Shown here one piece after another: positions 1 to 10,714 of a DNA stretch of 10,714 nt (position 1 is its first letter; every line of letters begins with the position of its first letter). Made by a program: the position numbers and the translations under genes. The DNA lies in the UHGV virus genome UHGV-0188446, one strand, 5' to 3'. Source of the DNA: a virus. Under the pieces are notes generated by a model that saw only the letters and a program-made list of their open reading frames with translations, was not told the origin of the DNA and ran no database searches.

Positions 1-13
1 GGCTTGTAATGGG

Positions 14-361
14 TTAAGTGATAACAGATGTCTGGAAATATAGGGGCAAATCCAGGCCTTCGCGAAGGATTACCTTCATCGCGATAAGCTCATTCTTGGC
101 CTTGTTTACCTTCTGTCTTGGCAGCCTGGTAATTTGAGCTAACTGACTATCAGAGATGCGATCCATCTTTTTACCGTATCCGTATGTTTTACGGCATATG
201 GCGTGGGCAACCTTACTCTGATTTTTTGTTAAATCTGCGCCGATAAGCTCTTCATACAGGGCATTTGCAAGACGGGTATAACCATCTTCAACTTCTGCCA
301 CACGACGCTCCACAGGCCGTTGTGAAGGCCTTAAATGTGTTACGGTTGCAAGATTACTCAT
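14..361 (-). CDS. O: Lambda O-like replication initiation protein, N-terminal origin-binding domain; frame stops after 115 aa (truncated, pseudogenised or short variant)
   Basis: ORF track 14..361 with ATG at 361-359 (complement). The N-terminal segment ([55 protein letters not shown]) closely resembles the lambda O N-terminus as I recall it. It lies directly downstream of cII as in lambdoid phages. Stop codon at 16-14 (complement). Confidence 0.6.
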
Positions 362-500
362 GACCTTTCTCCTTCTGCATCAGCTTCACTTTTTCCAACT
401 CAGCCCGGAATCGACCAGGCTGCTTGAAGCTGGACAGGAAGCGATCACGTAGTATGTGTTTGTGAATTTTGTCCTGGTAAGGACTGAGTTGTTTTGTCAT
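354..500 (-). CDS. Small basic hypothetical protein (48 aa) between cII and O; not in the ORF track (<60 aa)
   Basis: Hand translation of the complement from ATG at 500-498 gives [48 protein letters not shown], stop at 356-354. A strong Shine-Dalgarno AGGAG (complement of 506-510) lies 5 nt upstream. Its 3' end overlaps the O start codon, suggesting translational coupling. Confidence 0.3.
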
Positions 501-514
501 AATTACTCCTGTGG

Positions 515-590
515 ATTGATCCAGTAATTCCCTCAGAATTGCATATCAATTTGCTTAAAATCCTCGGTGGCAGCCGGGGATTTTTTCTTT
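515..590 (+). ncRNA. oop: Candidate oop-like antisense RNA ending in an intrinsic terminator, antisense to the 3' end of cII (5' end not defined)
   Basis: Plus-strand hairpin 559-582 (aatcctcgg / ccgggggatt, 9 bp with one G-U pair, loop tggcag) followed by a T-run to 590, located inside the 3' end of the minus-strand cII-like CDS. This matches the position and orientation of lambda oop. No clean promoter was identified by eye. Confidence 0.3.
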
Positions 591-829
591 GTGATTTCAT
601 CAAGCGCATACTTAAAAGCCCTGCTAATCGGACTGATGTCTGATGCCATTCCAAAAGCACACAAGACCGAAGCAATAAATCTCCAGTCCGTTCTGCTTAT
701 CTTCGATTCATGACAGCCAATCATCTTTGCCAGACCGCGCTGGGTAAGCGTTGACAGGTTGATGAGTAAATCTGTTTCTGCGCGATCAATTTCTCGCTGT
801 GTTGGCTTGCTGTAACTTGCTTGTGTCAT
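533..829 (-). CDS. cII: CII-like transcriptional activator of lysogeny establishment (divergent from lambda cII, same family)
   Basis: ORF track 533..829, 98 aa. Position between cro and O. HTH-like segment [15 protein letters not shown] and C-terminus [18 protein letters not shown] parallel the lambda CII C-terminus (..NKKRPAATERSEQIQMEF) as recalled. Confidence 0.8.
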
Positions 830-840
830 TTGTTAATTTT
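806..840 (+). promoter_or_regulatory. Candidate PRE-type CII-activated promoter with TTGC-N6-TTGC direct repeats
   Basis: TTGC at 806-809 and 816-819 separated by 6 nt (tgtaac), on the strand pointing toward cI and overlapping the cII start codon (827-829). This is the arrangement of the CII-binding site at lambda PRE. Confidence 0.45.
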
Positions 841-913
841 CCAATAGTGAATAGTTAGTTGAAAGGTATGCGTGGAAACGCATATGGCCTTAGTTGGTCA
901 GATATCTTGGGGC

Positions 914-959
914 TCGCTTTGTCAGCGACGTAGGACGAATGTCCATTGTGAAAAGAGCG
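914..959 (-). promoter_or_regulatory. Candidate nutR: boxA-like CGCTCTTTT (complement of 951-959) and P22-type boxB hairpin TCGCTGACAAAGCGA (complement of 914-928)
   Basis: On the PR transcript just after the cro stop, CGCTCTTTT matches the boxA consensus. It is followed about 22 nt later by a 5-bp stem with GACAA pentaloop, the same loop as the nutL boxB at 3851-3865. The spacer is longer than in lambda. Confidence 0.4.
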
Positions 960-966
960 GTGTTAC

Positions 967-1167
967 TTATGCAGTTGTTTTTTTGTTACTTGGGAAGGGC
1001 TTTATTTCTTCCGCATAAACGCTTCCATCAGCGTTTATAGTTAAAAAAATCTTTCGGCCTGCATGAATGGCCTTGTTAATCGCGCTTTGATATACGCCGA
1101 GATCTTTAGCCGTCTTGGTTTGCCCAAAGCGTATTGCATAATCTTTCAGGGTTATGCGTTGTTCCAT
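967..1167 (-). CDS. cro: Cro repressor
   Basis: 66-aa [69 protein letters not shown], essentially the lambda Cro sequence as recalled. AGGAGG Shine-Dalgarno (complement of 1171-1176). Divergent from cI across the OR operators. Confidence 0.95.
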
Positions 1168-1191
1168 ACAACCTCCTTAGTACAGGCAATC

Positions 1192-1262
1192 ATTATCACC
1201 GCTAGAGGTAAAATAGTCAACACGCACGGTGTTAGAAGTTTATCCCTTGCGGTGATAGATTT
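1192..1262. promoter_or_regulatory. Right operator OR1-OR2-OR3 with divergent promoters PR (toward cro) and PRM (toward cI)
   Basis: Three 17-bp lambda-type operators: OR1 1194-1210 tatcaccgctagaggta, OR2 1218-1234 caacacgcacggtgtta, OR3 1241-1257 tatcccttgcggtgata. PR -10 is GATAAT (complement of 1192-1197) and -35 is TTGACT (complement of 1215-1220) with 17-bp spacing. PRM lies on the plus strand with the cI ATG at 1268 directly downstream (leaderless arrangement as in lambda). Confidence 0.9.
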
Positions 1263-1264
1263 AA

Positions 1265-1981
<717 letters not shown>

Positions 1982-2130
1982 TGGGCAAGGTGTTCTGGTC
2001 GGCGCATAGCTGGTGAAAAAATTATTTAATGCGGTGTATTGGCTGATTGTAACCCCATGTAACATCTTGCCGTCACCATTTCGGTGGTTAGATTTTTAAT
2101 AAAAAAAACAAATGTATAGCAAGGTTTTTT

Positions 2131-2610
2131 ATGGATAAAATTAATTACCCACCCCTGTTTGAGCCAGGGTTCCATGACATGGATGAAGCTGGATTAAAAT
2201 CGTATTGTGTCGATTGCTTTCCTTCATCATCCAGGCGAGGCATGCTATACTGTAATTTTATACAGCTACTCGAATCTATTCGAGAATTATCTGCTCAATA
2301 TGGCTGTTTTACAGAAATATGGGTTGATGGTTCATACACCACGTCTAAACCAGAGCCTGATGATATTGATATTTTGTTGGTATGTGACTATAGCAATATA
2401 AACTCAATACCTGTCATGCTTCGGGGCCGCGTCGATAATTTGCTTGACCGAAACTACATCAAACAAAACTACAAAATTGATGTCCTACTACTCATGAAGA
2501 ATTTAGATGACCCTAACTATGATTATGAGTACTGGCGTAGCTACTGGCGCGGTTGGTTTGGTTTTGATCGCAGTGAAAACCCGAAAGGGTTAGTGAGGAT
2601 TTTTTTATGA
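2131..2610 (+). CDS. Hypothetical protein with minimal nucleotidyltransferase (pol-beta superfamily) signature; first gene of a two-gene cassette in the rexA/rexB position
   Basis: ORF track 2131..2610, 159 aa. Motif IWVDGSYTTSKPEPDDIDILLVCD fits the hG[GS]-x(9-13)-DhD pattern of minimal nucleotidyltransferases. AAGG about 9 nt upstream of the ATG. Stop overlaps the next gene's start (ATGA at 2607-2610). No resemblance to lambda RexA. Confidence 0.7.
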   Translation: MDKINYPPLFEPGFHDMDEAGLKSYCVDCFPSSSRRGMLYCNFIQLLESIRELSAQYGCFTEIWVDGSYTTSKPEPDDIDILLVCDYSNINSIPVMLRGRVDNLLDRNYIKQNYKIDVLLLMKNLDDPNYDYEYWRSYWRGWFGFDRSENPKGLVRIFL

Positions 2611-3539
2611 ATGATAAATCAATGTTTAAAAATTGCGATAAACGCATTGATTTCATTCAAAAAGAAGTCGATGCAATGAAGCAAAACAAAACCAGGTCCT
2701 TTGCTGACATGCTTCTTTATCGCTCCATGGATTCTCATCTGAGCGATTTGAAGGCCGAAAAATTAAAGCAAGATAGTCGGCACCCACTTATCGATTTTTT
2801 TGAGCTGCGGCTGAAAGGCTCTGAGGTTGACTTTGGCTCTATTCCTTTAGAGCTGCTTGGGGCTATTTCAACAAATCTTGCAGCGCTAATACAAAGAGCA
2901 ACACACAAAATTGCCTCAGGCAAGGACTCAAAAAAAGTTCCCTACGACGTGAAAAGCTCCTTAAACCTCAGGCTGGCTGATTTATCCCCTGGGTCTACAA
3001 AATTGGGCGTCACCTTCTCTACAGGAATAGCAGAATTAGTAGAAACAGTACCCAGCAAGGCTGTAAAAGGCATATTCGATTTGTTGTTAAGCGATGACGA
3101 CAACAACTTCATGAATCACGTCGCTGAAATTGGATACAATTCCACTGTAAGCCTTAAGAGAATCGTAGAGGAATGCGATAAACACAACTTAACATTTGAT
3201 GCAAGTTGGACCGGTCCATTTAGTAATGGCACCAAGGTGGCAACTATTGACTCCAATAAAATTAAGTACTTGGTGAGTAGACTTACATCAACCATTTCAT
3301 CCCCTCCCATTACTGAAACGGTTACAGGCGAACTGGTCGTTCTATCCAAATATGGGAAGCTGGAGCTTGATGTTGGTGGTGAACATTTAAAGGCTTCCTA
3401 TCCGATTGAAATGCTAGATTTAATACAAAAAAAACACAAGGTCGGACAGATTGTTTCTCTTTTAGTGGAGACTACTGAGATTCACAATGATCGCATAGGT
3501 CTGTACCGTAAAAACCATCTTGTTAAATCGGTTCTTTAA
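2607..3539 (+). CDS. Hypothetical 310-aa soluble protein of unknown function; second gene of the cassette, translationally coupled to the nucleotidyltransferase gene
   Basis: ORF track 2607..3539. ATG overlaps the upstream stop. No long hydrophobic segments, no Walker motifs, no resemblance to RexB seen by eye. An Rx4H string (RSMDSH, aa 39-44) is noted but is weak evidence. Followed by an intrinsic terminator. Confidence 0.7.
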   Translation: MNDKSMFKNCDKRIDFIQKEVDAMKQNKTRSFADMLLYRSMDSHLSDLKAEKLKQDSRHPLIDFFELRLKGSEVDFGSIPLELLGAISTNLAALIQRATHKIASGKDSKKVPYDVKSSLNLRLADLSPGSTKLGVTFSTGIAELVETVPSKAVKGIFDLLLSDDDNNFMNHVAEIGYNSTVSLKRIVEECDKHNLTFDASWTGPFSNGTKVATIDSNKIKYLVSRLTSTISSPPITETVTGELVVLSKYGKLELDVGGEHLKASYPIEMLDLIQKKHKVGQIVSLLVETTEIHNDRIGLYRKNHLVKSVL

Positions 3540-3546
3540 TATCTCA

Positions 3547-3572
3547 CCCGGCCACCGAGCCGGGTTTTCTTT
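3547..3572 (+). terminator. Rho-independent terminator closing the cI/cassette transcription unit
   Basis: GC-rich hairpin cccggc-caccga-gccggg (3547-3564) followed by ttttcttt (3565-3572), 8 nt after the stop of the 310-aa gene. Confidence 0.7.
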
Positions 3573-3719
3573 GCCTACCCCCCCCCAAAAAAAACACATA
3601 ACCAATTGTATTTATTTGAAAATTAATAGATACAACTCACTAAACATAGCAATTCAGATCTCTCACCTACCAAACAATGCCCCCTGCAAAAAATAAATTC
3701 ATATAAAAAACATACAGAT

Positions 3720-3782
3720 AACCATCTGCGGTGATTAATTATCTCTAGCGGTGTTGACATAAATACCACTGGCGGTGATACT
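3720..3782 (+). promoter_or_regulatory. Left operator OL3-OL2-OL1 with promoter PL (transcribing rightward in this window)
   Basis: OL3 3720-3736 aaccatctgcggtgatt, OL2 3740-3756 tatctctagcggtgttg, OL1 3764-3780 taccactggcggtgata. PL -35 TTGACA at 3754-3759 and -10 GATACT at 3777-3782 with 17-bp spacing. Near-identical to the lambda PL region as recalled. Confidence 0.92.
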
Positions 3783-3850
3783 AAACACATCAGCAGGACG
3801 CACTACTCACCAGGGCGGTGAATATACAACGATTCGAATATGAATCTACG

Positions 3851-3865
3851 GCGCTGACAAAGCGC
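3851..3865 (+). promoter_or_regulatory. nutL boxB hairpin of P22 type (GCGCUGACAAAGCGC)
   Basis: Perfect 5-bp stem gcgct/agcgc with pentaloop gacaa about 60 nt downstream of the PL start. This matches the P22 boxB as I recall it rather than lambda boxB (GCCCUGAAGAAGGGC). No clear boxA was recognised upstream. Confidence 0.6.
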
Positions 3866-3870
3866 AATAA

Positions 3871-4013
3871 CCAAAGTGAACTTTGGGGTGTGGTGAAGGG
3901 TTCATGGACGGGAATATGTCGCACGTAAAGCGGCGAGGCCTGCGGGACTATTGCCGAATTGAAGTAGGCCGAAACAGGTCGAAATGGGTCTCCCACCTAC
4001 CACACCACCAAAG
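3871..4013 (+). promoter_or_regulatory. N-leader RNA structure: long-range stem (3881-3895 with 4000-4013) plus competing local hairpin (3871-3886)
   Basis: ctttggggtgtggtg (3881-3895) is complementary to ccacaccaccaaag (4000-4013) with one bulge. ccaaag-tgaa-ctttgg (3871-3886) can form an alternative local hairpin. Lambda has an equivalent long-range leader duplex upstream of N that is processed by RNase III (recalled). The stem ends 8 nt before the N Shine-Dalgarno. Confidence 0.5.
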
Positions 4014-4030
4014 TTCATCAGGAGGTCTAT

Positions 4031-4414
4031 ATGACACGCAGAACTCAGTTCAAAGGCAATTCACGTTCTCGTCGTCGTGAGCGTTTAAAGGCAAAGGCAT
4101 TAGCTAACGGCGTGCTGGCCCGCGAAGAAGCAATAAGTTCAGAAGTATTACACCGCCCTACTCTAAGCAGAGCGCAGATTCAGGCTAAAGGTACTCACGA
4201 AACGCCTGAGCGCATAGAAGACGCTAAGCCAATTAAGTTCATGGCACAGGACGTGATCTGGCAACAGAAAGAATACAGACGCAATCTGGAGAGAGCGGCC
4301 ATTGTGTACGCGAATGAGTTTGGGCATAGGCAACCAGAAACTGGTGTATGTCTTCCAAATGTAGCTCTTTACGCGGCAGGCTACAGGAAATCAAAACAAC
4401 TGACAGCAAGGTGA
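4031..4414 (+). CDS. N: N-like transcription antitermination protein, P22 gene 24-like family, with arginine-rich N-terminal motif
   Basis: First gene downstream of PL/nutL. GGAGG Shine-Dalgarno at 4021-4025. N-terminal arginine-rich motif (NSRSRRRERLKAKALA). C-terminus ..CLPNVALYAAGYRKSKQLTAR resembles the P22 N C-terminus (..LLPGVALYAAGHRKSKQITAR) as recalled. Confidence 0.8.
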   Translation: MTRRTQFKGNSRSRRRERLKAKALANGVLAREEAISSEVLHRPTLSRAQIQAKGTHETPERIEDAKPIKFMAQDVIWQQKEYRRNLERAAIVYANEFGHRQPETGVCLPNVALYAAGYRKSKQLTAR

Positions 4415-4416
4415 CT

Positions 4417-4464
4417 TGTGTTGGTCGCCAGAAAATAAAATTAGGCAGCAAACCACTTATTTGA
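4417..4464 (+). pseudogene. Fossil 3' end of a lambda-type N gene (encodes CVGRQKIKLGSKPLI then stop), out of frame with the intact N
   Basis: Hand translation of 4417-4461 gives CVGRQKIKLGSKPLI followed by TGA. This matches the C-terminus of lambda-type N (..GRQKIK.KS.PLI) as recalled. It sits directly after the stop of the P22-type N in a different frame, so it looks like a recombination scar. Confidence 0.55.
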
Positions 4465-4472
4465 GGTGATAT

Positions 4473-4559
4473 ATGGAAGAAGAATTTGAAGAGTTCGAAG
4501 AGCATCCGCAGGATGTGATGGAACAATACCAGGACTATCCGTATGACTACGACTATTGA
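4473..4559 (+). CDS. Candidate 28-aa highly acidic micro-protein (MEEEFEEFEEHPQDVMEQYQDYPYDYDY)
   Basis: ATG at 4473 preceded by GAGGT 7 nt upstream; stop TGA at 4557-4559. Overlaps the ral start. Not in the ORF track because of size. Coding status uncertain. Confidence 0.25.
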   Translation: MEEEFEEFEEHPQDVMEQYQDYPYDYDY

Positions 4560-4743
4560 TAAGAATCAATGGTGTGGACAATTCAAACGATGCAATGGAT
4601 GCAAGCTGCAATCGGAATGCATGGTTAAGCCTGAAGAAATGTTTCCTGTAATGGAAGATGGGAAATATGTCGATAAATGGGCAATACGAACGACGGCAAT
4701 GATTGCCAGAGAACTTGGTAAACAGAATAACAAGGCTGCCTGA
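4543..4743 (+). CDS. ral: Ral, restriction alleviation protein
   Basis: 66-aa ORF MTTTIDKNQWCGQFKRCNGCKLQSECMVKPEEMFPVMEDGKYVDKWAIRTTAMIARELGKQNNKAA, matching lambda Ral as recalled. Same length as lambda ral (201 nt). Confidence 0.9.
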   Translation: MTTTIDKNQWCGQFKRCNGCKLQSECMVKPEEMFPVMEDGKYVDKWAIRTTAMIARELGKQNNKAA

Positions 4744-4789
4744 TGGTAGCCTTTATTTTTGGCATAAACAACAGAATAAACACTGCACT

Positions 4790-4817
4790 GTGTATTCATT
4801 CCAATGAGTGAATACAC
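4790..4817. other. 12-bp inverted repeat with 4-nt spacer (gtgtattcattc-caat-gagtgaatacac); strong hairpin or dimeric protein-binding site
   Basis: Arms 4790-4801 and 4806-4817 are complementary at 11 of 12 positions (the remaining pair is G-U in RNA). No adjacent T-run on the plus strand. Confidence 0.5.
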
Positions 4818-4879
4818 GGAGCAATGTCGCTCGTAACTAAACAGGAGCCGACTTGTTCTGATTATTGGAAATCTTCTTT

Positions 4880-4905
4880 GCCCTCCAATGTGAGGGCCTT
4901 TTTAT
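4880..4905 (+). terminator. Rho-independent terminator
   Basis: gccctc-caatgt-gagggc stem-loop (4880-4897) followed by ctttttat. Confidence 0.6.
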
Positions 4906-4917
4906 ATGCATACCAAT

Positions 4918-4941
4918 AACGCTTCACTCGAGGCGTTTTTC
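4918..4941 (+). terminator. Second hairpin plus T-run (candidate tandem terminator) just upstream of cIII
   Basis: aacgc(t)/(g)gcgtt stem around an 8-nt loop, followed by ttttt (4936-4940). Confidence 0.45.
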
Positions 4942-4966
4942 GTTATGTATAAATAAGGAGCACACC

Positions 4967-5107
4967 ATGCAATATGCCATTGCAGGGTGGCCTGTTGCTG
5001 GCTGCCCTTCCGAATCTTTACTTGAACGAATCACACGTAAATTACGTGATGGATGGAAACGCCTTATCGACATACTTAATCAGCCAGGAGTTCCCAAAAA
5101 TGGATAA
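4967..5107 (+). CDS. cIII: CIII, protector of CII (FtsH/HflB inhibitor)
   Basis: ATG at 4967 with AAGGAG 6 nt upstream. 46-aa product MQYAIAGWPVAGCPSESLLERITRKLRDGWKRLIDILNQPGVPKNG matches lambda CIII over its length except for a shorter C-terminus, as recalled. The ORF track shows a longer in-frame form from 4865, which I reject. Confidence 0.8.
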   Translation: MQYAIAGWPVAGCPSESLLERITRKLRDGWKRLIDILNQPGVPKNG

Positions 5108-5213
5108 AACACTTATGGCTATCCAGACTAAATTCACTATCGCCACTTTTATTGGCGATGAAAAGATGTTTCGTGAAGCCGTAGAAGCCTACAGAAAATG
5201 GAGGTCAAAATGA
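5100..5213 (+). CDS. kil: Kil-like host cell-division inhibitor
   Basis: ATG at 5100 overlapping the cIII stop (as kil overlaps cIII in lambda). 37-aa product MDKTLMAIQTKFTIATFIGDEKMFREAVEAYRKWRSK resembles the lambda Kil N-terminus as recalled. The ORF track's longer form from 4974 is rejected. Confidence 0.55.
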   Translation: MDKTLMAIQTKFTIATFIGDEKMFREAVEAYRKWRSK

Positions 5214-5398
5214 TTCCGGTAGAACTGGCGAAAACTCCAGAGTTAAGTCGATTAAAAAGAGAATATCACATTGCTGAGGCTCGTTACTGGCGTAAAGCGG
5301 GAGATAAATCAAAGAAACAACTTTGTTTATGGCAGGCGCAAAGAGAGCGCATGAATGAGCGCGAATTTCTTTCCTGCCCATCCGAATTACCATTCTGA
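5210..5398 (+). CDS. Hypothetical protein (62 aa)
   Basis: ATG at 5210 overlaps the kil stop (ATGA). GGAGG 6 nt upstream. Product MIPVELAKTPELSRLKREYHIAEARYWRKAGDKSKKQLCLWQAQRERMNEREFLSCPSELPF. Confidence 0.5.
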   Translation: MIPVELAKTPELSRLKREYHIAEARYWRKAGDKSKKQLCLWQAQRERMNEREFLSCPSELPF

Positions 5399-5406
5399 GG
5401 CAAATT

Positions 5407-6087
5407 ATGGGAACTGCGACATTAATACTCGGTGAATCTGGCACCGGAAAATCAACCAGCATGAGAAATATCAACCCAGAGGAAGCAATACTTATAAAAC
5501 CAATAGGCAAGCCGCTACCATTTAAATCAAAAGACTGGCTTGCATGGGATGCCAGAGCAAAAAAAGGAACCGTAGTTACCACTGACAAATGGGACGTAAT
5601 AGTTGCTGTAATTAAGCGTGCTCACGAATACGGAAAAAGAATCGTTATTGTTGATGACTTCCAGTATGTGATGAGCAATGAGTTTATGCGCCGCTCAGAA
5701 GAAAAATCGTTTGATAAATTTACTGAGATAGGCCGCCACGCATGGGAGGTGATTAAGGCTGCACAGGATGCACCTGATGACCTGAGAGTCTATTTTCTTG
5801 CACACACCGAAGAAACCCCTATGGGGCGTGTGAAAATGAAGACTATCGGCAAAATGCTGGACGAGAAAATCACTGTCGAAGGCATGTTTACTATAGTTCT
5901 TCGCACCCTTACCCGCGATGACCAGTTCTTTTTCACCACGAAAAACAACGGTGCAGACACTGTAAAATCCCCAATGGGAATGTTTGATTCTAATGAGATT
6001 GATAACGATCTCTCTTTCGTCGATGCCACTGTTTGTGATTACTACGGCATCAATAATGTTCATCAAATTAAGGAAAACGCCGCATGA
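5407..6087 (+). CDS. Sak4-like phage recombination ATPase (RecA-fold P-loop NTPase)
   Basis: 226-aa ORF with Walker A GESGTGKST near the N-terminus and Walker B-like hhhhDD (RIVIVDD). Size and position in the recombination slot are typical of Sak4-type single-strand annealing ATPases. GAGG Shine-Dalgarno upstream. Confidence 0.65.
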   Translation: MGTATLILGESGTGKSTSMRNINPEEAILIKPIGKPLPFKSKDWLAWDARAKKGTVVTTDKWDVIVAVIKRAHEYGKRIVIVDDFQYVMSNEFMRRSEEKSFDKFTEIGRHAWEVIKAAQDAPDDLRVYFLAHTEETPMGRVKMKTIGKMLDEKITVEGMFTIVLRTLTRDDQFFFTTKNNGADTVKSPMGMFDSNEIDNDLSFVDATVCDYYGINNVHQIKENAA

Positions 6088-6671
6088 GCAACGTGATTTT
6101 TACTTATAACGAAGAAGCAGCACTGACCGCAGGGCAAGGTGGTTTTATTAACGAAACTGGTGCTCATATCATTACCATTACTGAAGCAGAACTAAAGCAA
6201 TCAGAAAAAGGAGCCAAATTTATTGAGTTTTCTGGCGAATCTGACGACGGACGTAAAATCCAATATCTTAGCGTCTGTGTTCAGAAAAATGACGGAACGG
6301 AAAACAAATTTGGCGCAAATGTCGTTCACGCCATGATGGGGTGTGCCGGGATTGGACAATTAACGCAACATATGGTTTCCGCCAGTAAATTTGTTGCTCC
6401 TGAGTTTCATGGAAAGAAAATCGGGTTAGTGCTCCAGAAAGTATTAACCACAAACAAAAAGACTGGCGCAGACAACTACCAGATGGAAATACGCATCCCG
6501 TTTATTGCACAAACAGGTCAAACCCTTAAAGAAAAGGCAGAAGGCAAGCAACCAGAAACTATCGCCAACATGGTTGCCAATCTCAAAGATAAAGACAATC
6601 GCTCTAAAAACGTAAGCCAGAATCATGCAGATGATTATGGTTACAGCCAGAACGATTACCCTGCTTTCTGA
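6084..6671 (+). CDS. Putative ssDNA-binding protein partner of Sak4 (function inferred mainly from context)
   Basis: 195-aa ORF whose ATG overlaps the Sak4 stop (ATGA at 6084-6087). C-terminal tail ..DDYGYSQNDYPAF resembles the acidic/aromatic tails of SSB proteins. Sak4 genes are commonly followed by an SSB. Confidence 0.45.
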   Translation: MSNVIFTYNEEAALTAGQGGFINETGAHIITITEAELKQSEKGAKFIEFSGESDDGRKIQYLSVCVQKNDGTENKFGANVVHAMMGCAGIGQLTQHMVSASKFVAPEFHGKKIGLVLQKVLTTNKKTGADNYQMEIRIPFIAQTGQTLKEKAEGKQPETIANMVANLKDKDNRSKNVSQNHADDYGYSQNDYPAF

Positions 6672-6694
6672 TTACTGAAAATAAGGCTCCCATT

Positions 6695-6991
6695 ATGCCA
6701 GCGCCTCTGTATGGTGCGGATGACCCGCGCAATTGCTCCGGTAGCTCCAAGGCGGAGGTGCTGGAAAATATCAAAAACATTTTCGACACGTTTATCGATC
6801 TGCCACCAGAAACAAAAGCAGAACGGATGTACCGACGCGATATACAACTCGCGTTAAAAAATGAGAAGGACCGAACAAACGAAACATCAATCCGACCATT
6901 CCGCAAAGCCACATATACCCACTTCCCTGAATATATCGACCCGCGCCTGCGTAATTACCGCTCACGCTATGGCGCTATCAGTAATGACTGA
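6695..6991 (+). CDS. Hypothetical protein (98 aa)
   Basis: ORF track 6695..6991. AAGG upstream. Same strand and operon context. Confidence 0.5.
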
Positions 6992-7001
6992 GGAATTTAC
7001 C

Positions 7002-7169
7002 ATGAGAGGACTTGCATACAATCCCGGCATTCTTCCGGCAGAAATGATTATTCGCCAACGCGTAAAGCCAATGCCATCGAGAGAGGAATTGCTTAAGAGA
7101 AATTCTTTTCCATCAGTGAATCAAAACAAATATCTGAATGCGATGTGGCGCAAAGGAGGCAACCAGTGA
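7002..7169 (+). CDS. Hypothetical protein (55 aa)
   Basis: ATG at 7002 preceded by GAGGA. In frame with track ORF 6861..7169, whose upstream extension overlaps the previous gene and is rejected. Stop overlaps the GTG start of the next gene. Confidence 0.45.
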
Positions 7170-8032
7170 GCAAGATTGACTATCAGGTACTGCGTGCCAA
7201 GGCAGAAAAAGCAACGTGTGGTGTATGGTCGCTCGAATATGGAGAGAGCCGATTTGATGGTGATGATGCTCTAATTTATCGCGAGGCTGCTGGATATATT
7301 CCCATTTGCAGAATTGAAGGAGCGCATCCAGAAAGCGGTTTCGATGAAGATTTCCAAATGGAACAGCAGGCCAATGCTGAATTCATCGCCGCAGCCAATC
7401 CCGCTACCGTCTTGGCCCTGCTGGATGAACTGGAAAGAAACCAGCAATACATAAAACGCCGCGATCAGGAGAACGAGGATATTGCGCTAACGGTAGGGAA
7501 ACTGCGTGTTGAGCTTGAGGAGACAAAATCAAAACTCAACGAGCAGCGCGAGTATTACGAAGGTGTCATCTCGGATGGAAGTAAGCGCATAGCAGAGTTG
7601 CAGACAAAATCTGCACCAGATTCGTTTGGCATCATCGGTGAAAATATTCGAACACAGGATAATCGAATAACGTCAGACCCTATGTTTTGTGTGTATCAAA
7701 AGTGCGAAATTGTTGTTGATGCTGATTATGACTATGACCGGATTGTCTGGGTTGATGAAGATGGCAATGAAGCCAATAAACGCCAAAGTCGTCGTCTCGA
7801 ACTACTTCACGAAAACTTTCGAGAGCCACCAGAAAAATGGCGGCGCGTTGCTGTGAAAGATATTGATGAATTCGTTACCTGCTGTTTCACCGAACAGGGT
7901 TGTAAAGACTACCTGGCAGCCAATGGTCACAATCTTCGCTTGCCATTTATATATGTAAAAAGCGGTTTCAGGAACGCTGAATATATCGGCATAAGAAACT
8001 GGCTTGCTGGCATTCGCATCAAAGGAGAGTGA
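7166..8032 (+). CDS. Ea22-like protein (coiled-coil-containing phage early protein of unknown function)
   Basis: ORF track 7145..8032. Preferred start is GTG at 7166 (AGGAGG 8 nt upstream, GTGA overlap with the upstream stop), giving [15 protein letters not shown].... Assignment rests on position upstream of ea8.5 and general resemblance to Ea22-family proteins; not verified. Confidence 0.5.
8007..8032 (+). repeat. 26-bp direct repeat, copy 1 (ctggcattcgcatcaaaggagagtga)
   Basis: Identical to 8501-8526. Encodes the C-terminal GIRIKGE plus stop of the Ea22-like gene and carries the AAGGAG Shine-Dalgarno for the next gene. Confidence 0.9.
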
Positions 8033-8034
8033 GA

Positions 8035-8526
8035 ATGCAAATTTCACCGGTTACTCTTCGTGTTGCGAAGGCGTTTATATCCAGACATCACCGACACAAT
8101 AAACCCCCGGTGGGGCATAAATTCAGCATTGGTCTGAGAAATGATGCCGGAGAATTGATAGGTGTGGCGACAGCCGGTAGACCTGTTGCACGACATTTGG
8201 ACGATGGATTAACGCTTGAAGTAAATCGCACATGTACCACAGGAGAACGCAACGCTAACAGCGCGCTTTATGGTGCTGTCTGGCGGGCAGCAAAGGCTAT
8301 GGGTTATCAACGTTGTATTACGTACACCCAGGCAGATGAATCAGGAGCATCTCTCCGCGCAGCTGGTTTTGTTCGTGTGAAAGAGCTTCCTCCAAGAAAA
8401 AGCTGGGCGGAATCAAGCGTCGCCCTGCGGAGTAAACGCGATCCGGTCGGAAACGGTGGTGTTCCTCGTGTGCTCTGGGAAATCAGGAGAATGAGTACCA
8501 CTGGCATTCGCATCAAAGGAGAGTGA
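8035..8526 (+). CDS. Hypothetical protein (163 aa), possibly GNAT-like fold; inserted gene bounded by 26-bp direct repeats
   Basis: ATG at 8035 with AAAGGAGAG upstream (the track starts at GTG 8029). Product MQISPVTLRVAKAFISRHHRHNKPPVGHKFSIGL.... The C-terminal GIRIKGE plus stop is encoded by the second repeat copy. Fold assignment is a weak impression only. Confidence 0.5.
   Translation: MQISPVTLRVAKAFISRHHRHNKPPVGHKFSIGLRNDAGELIGVATAGRPVARHLDDGLTLEVNRTCTTGERNANSALYGAVWRAAKAMGYQRCITYTQADESGASLRAAGFVRVKELPPRKSWAESSVALRSKRDPVGNGGVPRVLWEIRRMSTTGIRIKGE
8501..8526 (+). repeat. 26-bp direct repeat, copy 2
   Basis: Perfect copy of 8007-8032. Confidence 0.9.
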
Positions 8527-8728
8527 TATGAGCAGGAATACGGGTTTGTAAAAGATAACGCTTGTGAAAATGCTGAATTTCGCGTCGTCTTCACAACGAT
8601 GCCAGAGTCTGTAGTGTCAGATGATGACCGTACTCAAACATCGGGTTGGGTATTATCTTACTGTTTCTTTACATAAACATTGCTGATACCGTTTAGCTGA
8701 AACGACATACATTGCAAGGAGTTTATAA

Positions 8729-9010
8729 ATGAGTATCAATGAGTTAGAGTCTGAGCAAAAAGATTGGGTGTTATCAATGTTGTGCAGATCCGGTGTCTTG
8801 TCTCCATGCAGACATCACGAAGGTGTTTATGTAGATGAAGGTATAGATATAGAATCGGCATACAAATATTCCATGAAGGTTTATAAGTCTAATGAAGACA
8901 AATCCCCATTCTGCAATGTGCGAGAAATGACTGATACCGTGCAAAATTATTATCACGAGTACGGTGGAAACGATACTTGCCCTCTCTGTACAAAACATAT
9001 AGATGATTAA
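8729..9010 (+). CDS. ea8.5: Ea8.5-like protein (Cys/His-rich, probable zinc-binding)
   Basis: 93-aa ORF, the same length as lambda ea8.5 (282 nt) and in the same relative position between ea22 and xis. Contains C..C..HH...C...CPLC ligand candidates. Sequence matches lambda Ea8.5 as far as I can recall. Confidence 0.6.
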   Translation: MSINELESEQKDWVLSMLCRSGVLSPCRHHEGVYVDEGIDIESAYKYSMKVYKSNEDKSPFCNVREMTDTVQNYYHEYGGNDTCPLCTKHIDD

Positions 9011-9028
9011 ACCAAATATTACATAACA

Positions 9029-9057
9029 ATCCTCGCACTCGCGGGGATTTCTTTTAT
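9029..9057 (+). terminator. Rho-independent terminator after ea8.5
   Basis: 8-bp stem atcctcgc/gcggggat with loop actc, followed by ttcttttat. Confidence 0.6.
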
Positions 9058-9060
9058 CTG

Positions 9061-9085
9061 AACTCGCTACGGCGAGTTTTGTTTT
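9061..9085 (+). terminator. Second tandem hairpin plus T-run
   Basis: aactcgc-tacg-gcgagtt perfect 7-bp stem followed by ttgtttt. Confidence 0.55.
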
Positions 9086-9097
9086 ATGGAGATGATT

Positions 9098-9397
9098 ATG
9101 GGCTGTTCAACATTCAACCCTCTAACTTTACAGAAATACCAGCCAGACCCTGAAGATTTATGCTCACTGTGTGGCGGAAATCATGGTAAAGCCGCCATGA
9201 TCGAATGTAAGGACAAAATCCACATATGCCTTAATTGCGTTGATGTCCTCGTTGATATCAAAAATGAAAGAGAAGATAAAAAGCGTAGCGAGGCTATTCG
9301 CGCCTTAGATTCATGGATGCGAGATGGGTATAGTGCTGCGCAAATTTATGACTTAGCCATTTCAAAAGGCGAAATACCAGGTGTGCGCATCGAATAA
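9098..9397 (+). CDS. Hypothetical zinc-ribbon-like protein (two CxxC pairs)
   Basis: Track ORF 9086..9397. Preferred start is ATG 9098 with GGAG 6 nt upstream. Motifs CSLCGG and HICLNC. Confidence 0.5.
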   Translation: MGCSTFNPLTLQKYQPDPEDLCSLCGGNHGKAAMIECKDKIHICLNCVDVLVDIKNEREDKKRSEAIRALDSWMRDGYSAAQIYDLAISKGEIPGVRIE

Positions 9398-9437
9398 GAC
9401 GTAACCAATATTCGAATTGAAGAACTGAAAGAACACC

Positions 9438-9461
9438 AAGCCGCCTGATGGCGGTTTTTTA
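9438..9461 (+). terminator. Rho-independent terminator
   Basis: Stem gccgcc/ggcggt around loop tgat, followed by a T-run (9455-9461). Confidence 0.6.
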
Positions 9462-9474
9462 TTGGAGACAAGAA

Positions 9475-9819
9475 ATGTCAGATTTGGCTATGAAGGTTTT
9501 GAAATGGCAATCAACTGGCGATGTCGGCATCAGTAGCGCAACTCTTGCCTCGATCGCATGTGGACTGAAAAAGAATATCTATGGTCATAGCTTCGGTGCT
9601 CCACATGACGCAGCCGATTTCAGACGATGCGTTGCACTTGTTGAGCAGATCCCAGAAATCAGAGATTCATTCGACAAGGTTGCAAAGCGCGTTCCGGCAT
9701 TCAAAGGAATCCTCAACGAATGGGATTCCCTTGTTGCTCTGTTGAAGTCGGAAATGAAGATACACGGAAACAAAGCACCAGAGACTTACAGAAGAATCAG
9801 CGAGCTACGCAAGGACTAA
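9475..9819 (+). CDS. Hypothetical protein (114 aa)
   Basis: In frame with track ORF 9448..9819. ATG 9475 preceded by GGAGA 6 nt upstream. Product MSDLAMKVLKWQSTGDVGISSATLASIACGLKK.... Confidence 0.5.
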   Translation: MSDLAMKVLKWQSTGDVGISSATLASIACGLKKNIYGHSFGAPHDAADFRRCVALVEQIPEIRDSFDKVAKRVPAFKGILNEWDSLVALLKSEMKIHGNKAPETYRRISELRKD

Positions 9820-9936
9820 CCATGAAATAACACCGCCTCACACTCGATGAGGCCTGTTCATTGCTCAATGATATCCAGACCTACCATCGCCGCATCAATG
9901 CGGCTTTTTCTTGCGTGTAATTGCGGAGACTTTGCG

Positions 9937-10155
9937 ATGTACTTGACACTTCAGGAGTGGAACGCACGCCAGCGACGCCCAAGAAGCCTTGAAACAGTTC
10001 GTCGATGGGTGCGCGAATGCAGGATATTCCCTCCTCCGGTTAAGGATGGAAGAGAGTATCTGTTCCACGAATCAGCGGTAAAGGTTGACTTAAATCGACC
10101 AGTAACAGGTAGCCTTTTGAAGAGGATCAGAAATGGGAAGAAGGCGAAGTCATGA
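9937..10155 (+). CDS. xis: Excisionase Xis
   Basis: ATG at 9937 within track ORF 9847..10155. The 72-aa product MYLTLQEWNARQRRPRSLETVRRWVRECRIFPPPVKDGREYLFHESAVKVDLNRPVTGSLLKRIRNGKKAKS matches lambda Xis as recalled. Same length as lambda xis. 3' end overlaps int. Confidence 0.93.
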   Translation: MYLTLQEWNARQRRPRSLETVRRWVRECRIFPPPVKDGREYLFHESAVKVDLNRPVTGSLLKRIRNGKKAKS

Positions 10156-10714
10156 GCGCCGGGATTTACCCCCTAATCTTTATATAAGAAACAATGGATA
10201 TTACTGCTACAGGGACCCAAGGACGGGTAAAGAGTTTGGATTAGGCCGAGACAGGAGGATAGCAATCACTGAGGCTATACAGGCCAACATTGAGTTATTT
10301 TCAGGACACAAACACAAGCCTCTGACGGCGAGAATCAACAGTGATAATTCTGTTACGTTACATTCATGGCTTGATCGCTACGAAAAAATTCTCGCCAACA
10401 GAGGAATCAAGCAGAAGACACTCATAAATTACATGAGCAAAATTAAAGCAATAAGGAGGGGTCTGACTGATGCTCCACTTGAAGACATCACCACAAAAGA
10501 AATTGCAGCAATGCTCAATGGATACATAGACGAGGGCAAGGCGGCGTCAGCCAAGTTAATCAGATCAACACTGAGCGATGCATTCCGAGAGGCAATAGCT
10601 GAAGGCCATATAACAACAAACCCGGTCGCTGCCACTCGCGCAGCAAAATCAGAGGTAAGGAGATCAAGACTTACGGCTGACGAATACCTGAAAATTTATC
10701 AAGCAGCAGAATCA
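10133..10714 (+). CDS. int: Integrase Int (tyrosine recombinase), N-terminal 194 codons; continues beyond window end
   Basis: ATG at 10133. Hand translation MGRRRSHERRDLPPNLYIRNNGYYCYRDPRTGKEFGLGRDRRIAITEAIQANIELFSGHKHKPLTARINSDNSVTLHSWLDRYEKILANRGIKQKT... matches lambda Int as recalled. Overlaps the xis 3' end as in lambda. No stop before position 10714, so it is absent from the ORF track. Confidence 0.93.
   Translation, partial: MGRRRSHERRDLPPNLYIRNNGYYCYRDPRTGKEFGLGRDRRIAITEAIQANIELFSGHKHKPLTARINSDNSVTLHSWLDRYEKILANRGIKQKTLINYMSKIKAIRRGLTDAPLEDITTKEIAAMLNGYIDEGKAASAKLIRSTLSDAFREAIAEGHITTNPVAATRAAKSEVRRSRLTADEYLKIYQAAES

Follow-up and report, generated by a model that had tools for sequence, protein, structure and literature searches.

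Which genes take the place of gam, bet and exo in the virus genome UHGV-0188446, and do they form a recombination system of a new kind? The locus was analysed in a stretch of 10,714 nucleotides from this genome (the window, by which the whole stretch is meant), which is a lambdoid early-left (pL) region shown in the direction of pL transcription. The order of its open reading frames (ORFs) is cro (on the minus strand), cI, two non-lambda genes, N, ral, cIII, kil, ORFs for 62, 226, 195 and 98 amino acid residues (aa), and an Ead/Ea22-like gene. The initial annotation had suggested that the Red genes downstream of cIII and kil are replaced by a 62-aa ORF, a Walker A/B ATPase resembling Sak4 and a 195-aa partner resembling a single-stranded DNA (ssDNA)-binding protein (SSB). 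The three ORFs are found at the positions given there, and they almost certainly belong to a homologous-recombination module of the HK620 type of lambdoid phages, composed of hkaM, sak4, ssb and abc2. The module is an ordinary copy of an already known and experimentally studied kind, and it continues past the 195-aa ORF into abc2, which the initial annotation had overlooked. Its features are as follows.

5210-5398, + strand: hkaM orthologue, 62 aa; 61/62 residues identical to HK620 HkaM; PHROG 1723, E = 2.6e-33
5407-6087, + strand: sak4 (hkaL orthologue), 226 aa, core-only RecA/Rad51-like predicted annealing protein; 225/226 residues identical to HK620 HkaL
5431-5454, + strand: Walker A motif GESGTGKS, aa 9-16 of Sak4, read from the sequence
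5641-5658, + strand: Walker B motif IVIVDD, aa 79-84 of Sak4, read from the sequence
6084-6671, + strand: ssb (hkaK orthologue), 195 aa, predicted atypical phage SSB related to DUF669 and N4 gp45; 191/195 residues identical to HK620 HkaK
6651-6668, + strand: C-terminal hexapeptide NDYPAF of the SSB, which is NDYPPF in HK620; P194A is the sole change in the tail
6695-6991, + strand: abc2, 98 aa, P22-type anti-RecBCD gene, last of the module; Pfam Anti-RecBCD_p2, E = 2.7e-37; PHROG 656, E = 6.9e-47

The assignment is carried by the comparison with phage HK620 (AF335538). Positions 4774-7150 of the window align without any gap to HK620 6378-4002 over 2377 nt with 95.3% nucleotide identity, which amounts to 96-100% per 100 nt within hkaM-sak4-ssb, and the HkaM, Sak4 and SSB proteins are 98-99% identical in the two. 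Both share the order cIII-kil-hkaM-hkaL-hkaK-hkaJ(abc2), equal gene lengths (189, 681, 588 and 297 nt for the four module genes) and the same 4-nt overlaps. All three ORFs had initially been regarded as coupled by ATGA overlaps; those at 5210 and 6084 are real, but the one at 5210-5213 joins the kil stop to the hkaM start, and only the one at 6084-6087 lies between two of the three ORFs, joining the sak4 stop to the ssb start. The 62-aa ORF (stop codon 5396-5398) and the ATPase ORF (ATG at 5407) do not overlap and are 8 nt apart, with GAGG at 5397-5400 as the likely ribosome-binding site of the latter. Moreover, the combination with lambda-type kil and cIII, which had been put forward as special, is not so, since HK620 has the same order and overlaps. 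What distinguishes the window from the HK620 module is only the P194A exchange near the C-terminus of the SSB, a divergent allele of abc2 (67% aa identity) and the particular mosaic context: HK620 is a P22-like podovirus with another immunity region, whereas the window has lambda-type cI/cro immunity and lambda-type xis/int.

The 226-aa protein matches PHROG 2872, 'Sak4-like ssDNA annealing protein', with an E value of 3.9e-108, and G9, S11, G12, G14, K15, D83 and D84 in its Walker motifs are invariant among 44 homologues. In Pfam it reaches only the generic models AAA_24 (30.2 bits, cutoff 27) and AAA_22. NCBIfam has no matching family for HkaM, Sak4 or the SSB, and among PDB chains the sequence search returned nothing for Sak4 and, for the SSB, chance matches with E values no better than 0.68. 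Because neither protein has a meaningful sequence relative in PDB, the fold assignment of both rests on AF2 models, built from alignments of 40-44 homologues, and on Foldseek. The Sak4 model (pLDDT 88.8, pTM 0.88) is most similar to the solved Sak4 of a staphylococcal phage (8rc5, 219 aa, in complex with SaPI2 Stl; E = 2.3e-7, TM 0.55), and then to ATPase cores such as those of RAD51 paralogs, RadA, Dmc1, RecA and KaiC. The core-only RecA fold is common to the model and 8rc5, while their sequence identity is about 14% and nothing in the window suggests a role as a trigger of satellite derepression. As judged from profile and model, the ATPase is thus a member of the Sak4 family, as the initial annotation had supposed, and groups with Sak4, Rad51, RadA and RecA. 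The representative (P0121) of a cluster of 1036 members at 90% identity, named from Salmonella enterica, has a sequence 100% identical to it. Compared with HK620, 13 codons of sak4 are changed and 12 of them synonymously, a pattern that fits purifying selection as for a functional gene. Furthermore, an ssb gene adjoins up to 80% of sak4 genes (PMC5928155), and such a neighbour is present here.

This neighbour encodes the 195-aa protein, which matches PHROG 743, 'single strand DNA binding protein' (E = 1e-66), and is 98% identical to the characterised SSB of HK620. Its AF2 model (pLDDT 81.9, pTM 0.71) has the topology beta-beta-beta-alpha-beta-beta of an oligonucleotide/oligosaccharide-binding (OB) type fold, with strands at 26-39, 45-53, 58-67, 112-123 and 130-141 and a helix (75-88) between the third and the fourth of them, whereas residues 177-195 are predicted to be disordered (pLDDT below 50). 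The tail ends in DDYGYSQNDYPAF, the acidic/aromatic C-terminus pointed out initially; its terminal residue F195 is kept in at least 90% of 40 homologues, and the ending 'AF' also occurs in one of them (P0113). In the PDB, Foldseek found PrgE of plasmid pCF10 as the best match (E = 7e-5) and then dozens of bacterial SSBs and PriB. In BFVD the best match is a DUF669 protein (E = 1.8e-14), with N4-like phage SSBs at about 1e-9, in agreement with the remote links of the HK620 SSB to N4 gp45 reported in PMC5928155. The nearest structural relatives, DUF669 proteins, SSBs of the N4 gp45 type and PrgE, are OB-fold ssDNA binders, and NCBI names relatives of the protein 'DUF669 domain-containing'. Profile, identity to the HK620 protein and predicted fold together identify the 195-aa partner as an SSB, with a predicted fold that is known from ssDNA binders. 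Its function had been called uncertain at first; for the HK620 orthologue it is already established (PMC5928155). The canonical SSB profile of Pfam matches neither the window protein nor any of its 40 homologues. The protein therefore works, as far as fold and orthology tell, like an SSB, yet it lies outside the canonical bacterial SSB family, to which its likeness is at the fold level only, and it should not be filed there.

Several points weigh against this assignment. We infer the biochemical activities of the window proteins by orthology, from 98-99% identity to the HK620 proteins, and Abc2 is only 67% identical to its HK620 counterpart HkaJ. The P194A exchange lies within the functionally essential hexapeptide of the SSB. 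The similarity of the SSB model to bacterial SSBs is modest (TM 0.2-0.4), that to PrgE reaches TM 0.40-0.56, and the TM-scores towards the DUF669, N4 gp45-type and PrgE group as a whole are moderate (0.4-0.69). The protein has no match in Pfam, where DUF669 (PF05037) is absent even at E values up to 10; among its 40 homologues, seven reach DUF669, all below threshold and at best with E = 0.0067, so that the DUF669 membership stated in PMC5928155 was not reproduced at threshold with the 2025 copy of Pfam. In addition, the kinship of HkaK to canonical SSBs is debated, PMC12315714 listing it as 'SSB-2' and not as a homologue of bacterial SSB; its binding to ssDNA is not debated.

For HK620 itself the biochemistry has been worked out by Hutinet et al. 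2018 (PMC5928155). HK620 Sak4 is a core-only RecA/Rad51-like protein whose ssDNA binding and annealing depend on ATP and are weak when it acts alone, and it performs no strand exchange. HkaK is a true SSB, probably a tetramer, which shifts ssDNA and blocks RecA-mediated annealing (PMC5928155). It boosts annealing by Sak4 in vitro and recombineering in vivo through its last six residues, NDYPPF, the deletion of which abolishes the stimulation, and the tail is required for binding of Sak4 to SSB-covered ssDNA (PMC5928155). In oligonucleotide recombineering, sak4 and ssb alone reach the full level of the four-gene module, hkaM and abc2 being dispensable in that assay, and co-expression of abc2 with sak4 has no effect (PMC5928155). 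Abc2 modifies RecBCD, according to literature cited in PMC5928155 and to PMC12315714. In the window, the module comes behind N, ral, cIII and kil in transcription from pL and stands in the slot where lambda has gam-bet-exo. Transferred to its proteins, the HK620 results would mean that the SSB, as an atypical OB-fold tetramer, would coat ssDNA; that its disordered acidic/aromatic tail (NDYPAF) would recruit Sak4 to the covered strand; and that Sak4 would bind ssDNA and anneal complementary strands with ATP and without strand exchange. Abc2 would bind and redirect host RecBCD, whereby the host enzyme would supply the end resection that Exo supplies in lambda, a step suggested by the literature on P22 Abc2.

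The last gene of the module differs most from HK620. The Pfam match of Abc2 is full length (residues 1-98 against a profile of 97 positions), and the protein diverges from HkaJ because of a mosaic patch at 6674-6873, where nucleotide identity to HK620 falls to 52-84%; the flanks are 94-100% identical, and identity is high again after 6874. Chi sites (GCTGGTGG), which might be of importance to a phage with abc2, were found on neither strand of the whole window (1-10714).

The first gene behaves differently from the rest. An in-frame upstream ATG at 5198, the same ATG as the start codon of lambda gam, would give an alternative 66-aa product of hkaM; the ATG at 5210 is favoured because GGAGG stands at 5200-5204, and 5210 is also the annotated start in HK620. 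The gene occupies the slot of P22 arf. In phage Bas106 (L003, 2501-5201) a 97%-identical hkaM stands between kil and an Erf-like single-strand annealing protein (SSAP), followed by an SSB, an endonuclease, an exonuclease and abc2, for which reason hkaM was rejected as a part of the Sak4 cassette. Thus hkaM travels with kil and is common to different types of recombination (Rec) module, and the Sak4-SSB cassette proper begins at about 5399-5406.

The borders towards lambda agree with the initial statement that the Red genes are replaced downstream of cIII and kil. The features at the left border are the following.

4967-5107, + strand: cIII, 46 aa, lambda-type; Pfam Lambda_CIII, E = 9.4e-31
5100-5213, + strand: kil, 37 aa, host division inhibitor; Pfam Lambda_Kil, E = 8.4e-22
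5198-5202, no strand: left mosaic joint with lambda, from the end of the blastn match at 5202 and a three-way alignment of window, HK620 and lambda

The cIII gene belongs to the upstream flank common to lambda and HK620 and differs from HK620 cIII by one amino acid, as does kil, which has 114 nt in both. Homology to lambda (96%) extends through ral, cIII and kil, with 96% nucleotide identity by blastn across 4908-5202, ends at 5202 at the start of gam and resumes at 7418 (ea22 region); further homology follows at 8501-9096 (ea8.5) and 9889-10714 (xis/int). At the left joint the sequence is common to lambda through AAAATGGA, which holds the ATG of the 138-aa gam frame of lambda, and then diverges. 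HK620 has the same left joint, and the kil/hkaM junction is therefore inherited and not new. The substitution boundary at the gam start codon is a neat case of module exchange at gene borders. A short distance upstream, lambda ea10 ('ssb') is missing at 4907|4908, where lambda 33922 is joined directly to 33522 with flanks of 96% identity; the element is thus without ea10 while it carries the SSB of the HK620 type.

Like lambda Red, the module follows kil immediately in the pL operon, in the same slot, and should serve the same overall task, single-strand annealing recombination together with neutralisation of RecBCD. Past the gam start codon, however, there is no homology, and no Red-family match in Pfam or PHROG for gam, bet or exo was obtained in 5210-6991. 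The predicted annealase is an ATP-dependent protein of RecA/Rad51 fold, in contrast to the Rad52-like Beta of lambda; the module is without a dedicated exonuclease, RecBCD would be handled by Abc2 instead of Gam, and a dedicated SSB partner is required. With the P22 module (arf-erf-abc1-abc2) it shares the number of four genes and abc2 in the last place, its Abc2 being of the P22 Abc2 family, whereas the place of Erf is taken by Sak4 and that of Abc1 by the SSB, in both cases without homology, and HkaM, which is unrelated to Arf, stands where P22 has Arf (PMC5928155).

Of 5426 complete E. coli genomes, 240 contain the 1462-bp segment 5210-6671, 179 of them with at least 80% coverage; it is also present in 74 phage records, among them HK620, JEP4, TL-2011a and about 60 Stx1a- and Stx2a-converting phages. 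In the search with the whole window the lambda-like phage HK629 was also matched, in a region annotated with Sak4-like and SSB proteins. The labels of these genes in RefSeq/GenBank are mostly 'ATP-binding protein' and 'hypothetical protein'. As for the window as a whole, no collinear match (coverage of at least 80%) was found in the 5426 complete E. coli genomes or in 50,697 phage records; the exact mosaic of lambda immunity, the PDC-M63 pair described below, HK620 Rec module and lambda xis/int is therefore absent from those collections.

This isolated position of the window would suit the idea of a prophage in decay, in which the module genes are left over and inactive, their ORFs looking intact but no longer functioning. 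But all four ORFs are full length, with starts and stops unchanged from HK620, the catalytic Walker residues of Sak4 have been kept, as has the final F of the SSB, and neither the nearly exclusively synonymous changes in sak4 nor the identity of its product with the representative of so large a cluster is what a remnant would be expected to show; we regard decay as extremely improbable. A role mainly in replication is a further explanation, by which a phage SSB and an AAA_24 ATPase would form a concatemer module for the passage from theta to rolling-circle replication that is not strictly Red-like. The ATPase does reach only generic models in Pfam, mutants of staphylococcal phage in sak4 and ssb barely make genome multimers (work cited in PMC5928155), and Rec modules have been implicated in the theta-to-sigma switch (PMC12315714). 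Such a role, however, follows downstream from the same annealing activity and involves no separate mechanism. Oligonucleotide recombineering and in vitro annealing are direct effects of the HK620 proteins (PMC5928155), and the genes of the window stand in the pL recombination slot beside abc2 instead of the O/P replication module, which makes a primarily replicative module very unlikely.

A defence-system reading of Sak4 and SSB was also tried and rejected, as PADLOC gave for Sak4 only a match at the level of the P-loop (mad8, E = 2e-5, residues 1-23) and for the SSB none.

With these genes taken as an HK620-type recombination module, their discovery value is little. Publications already describe this module, how it works and that it can be exchanged for Red, Erf and RecT modules among lambdoid phages (Lopes 2010 as cited in PMC5928155; PMC5928155; PMC12315714), and Zheng et al. 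2025 count HK620 Sak4 and HkaK ('SSB-2') among the standard types of lambdoid Rec module (PMC12315714). The useful result is the correct annotation as hkaM / sak4 / ssb / abc2. Something beyond the known system could lie in the combination of P194A and the divergent Abc2, which could alter the specificity for partners (Sak4 or host proteins interacting with SSB), and in HkaM, which is conserved, coupled to kil and found before Erf-type modules as well, and which could be a general accessory factor of lambdoid recombination modules instead of a passenger; we consider this extension unlikely.

Outside the module, two further places in the window differ from lambda or attract attention. In the slot of rexA/rexB after the lambda-type cI (2131-3539, + strand) there is a different pair of overlapping ORFs (2131-2610 and 2607-3539); the lambda homology breaks off before them at 2012 and is taken up again at 3546. 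The shorter ORF encodes a DUF6932 protein of 159 aa (Pfam, E = 1.7e-24) and the longer one a protein of 310 aa without any match in Pfam or NCBIfam. As a pair they match M63A (E = 1.8e-41) and M63B (E = 7.5e-45), the two components of PDC-M63, a candidate defence system in PADLOC. It looks like a prophage-encoded candidate defence pair in place of Rex and is perhaps more interesting than the recombination module. At 8029-8526 (+ strand) a gene of the XF1762 family (NCBIfam, E = 5e-61) encodes a protein of 165 aa. Its match to the Mom family is weak and below threshold (Pfam, E = 7e-5; 23 bits, cutoff 27.1), and the protein may be a Mom-like modification enzyme on the b-region side of the pL operon.

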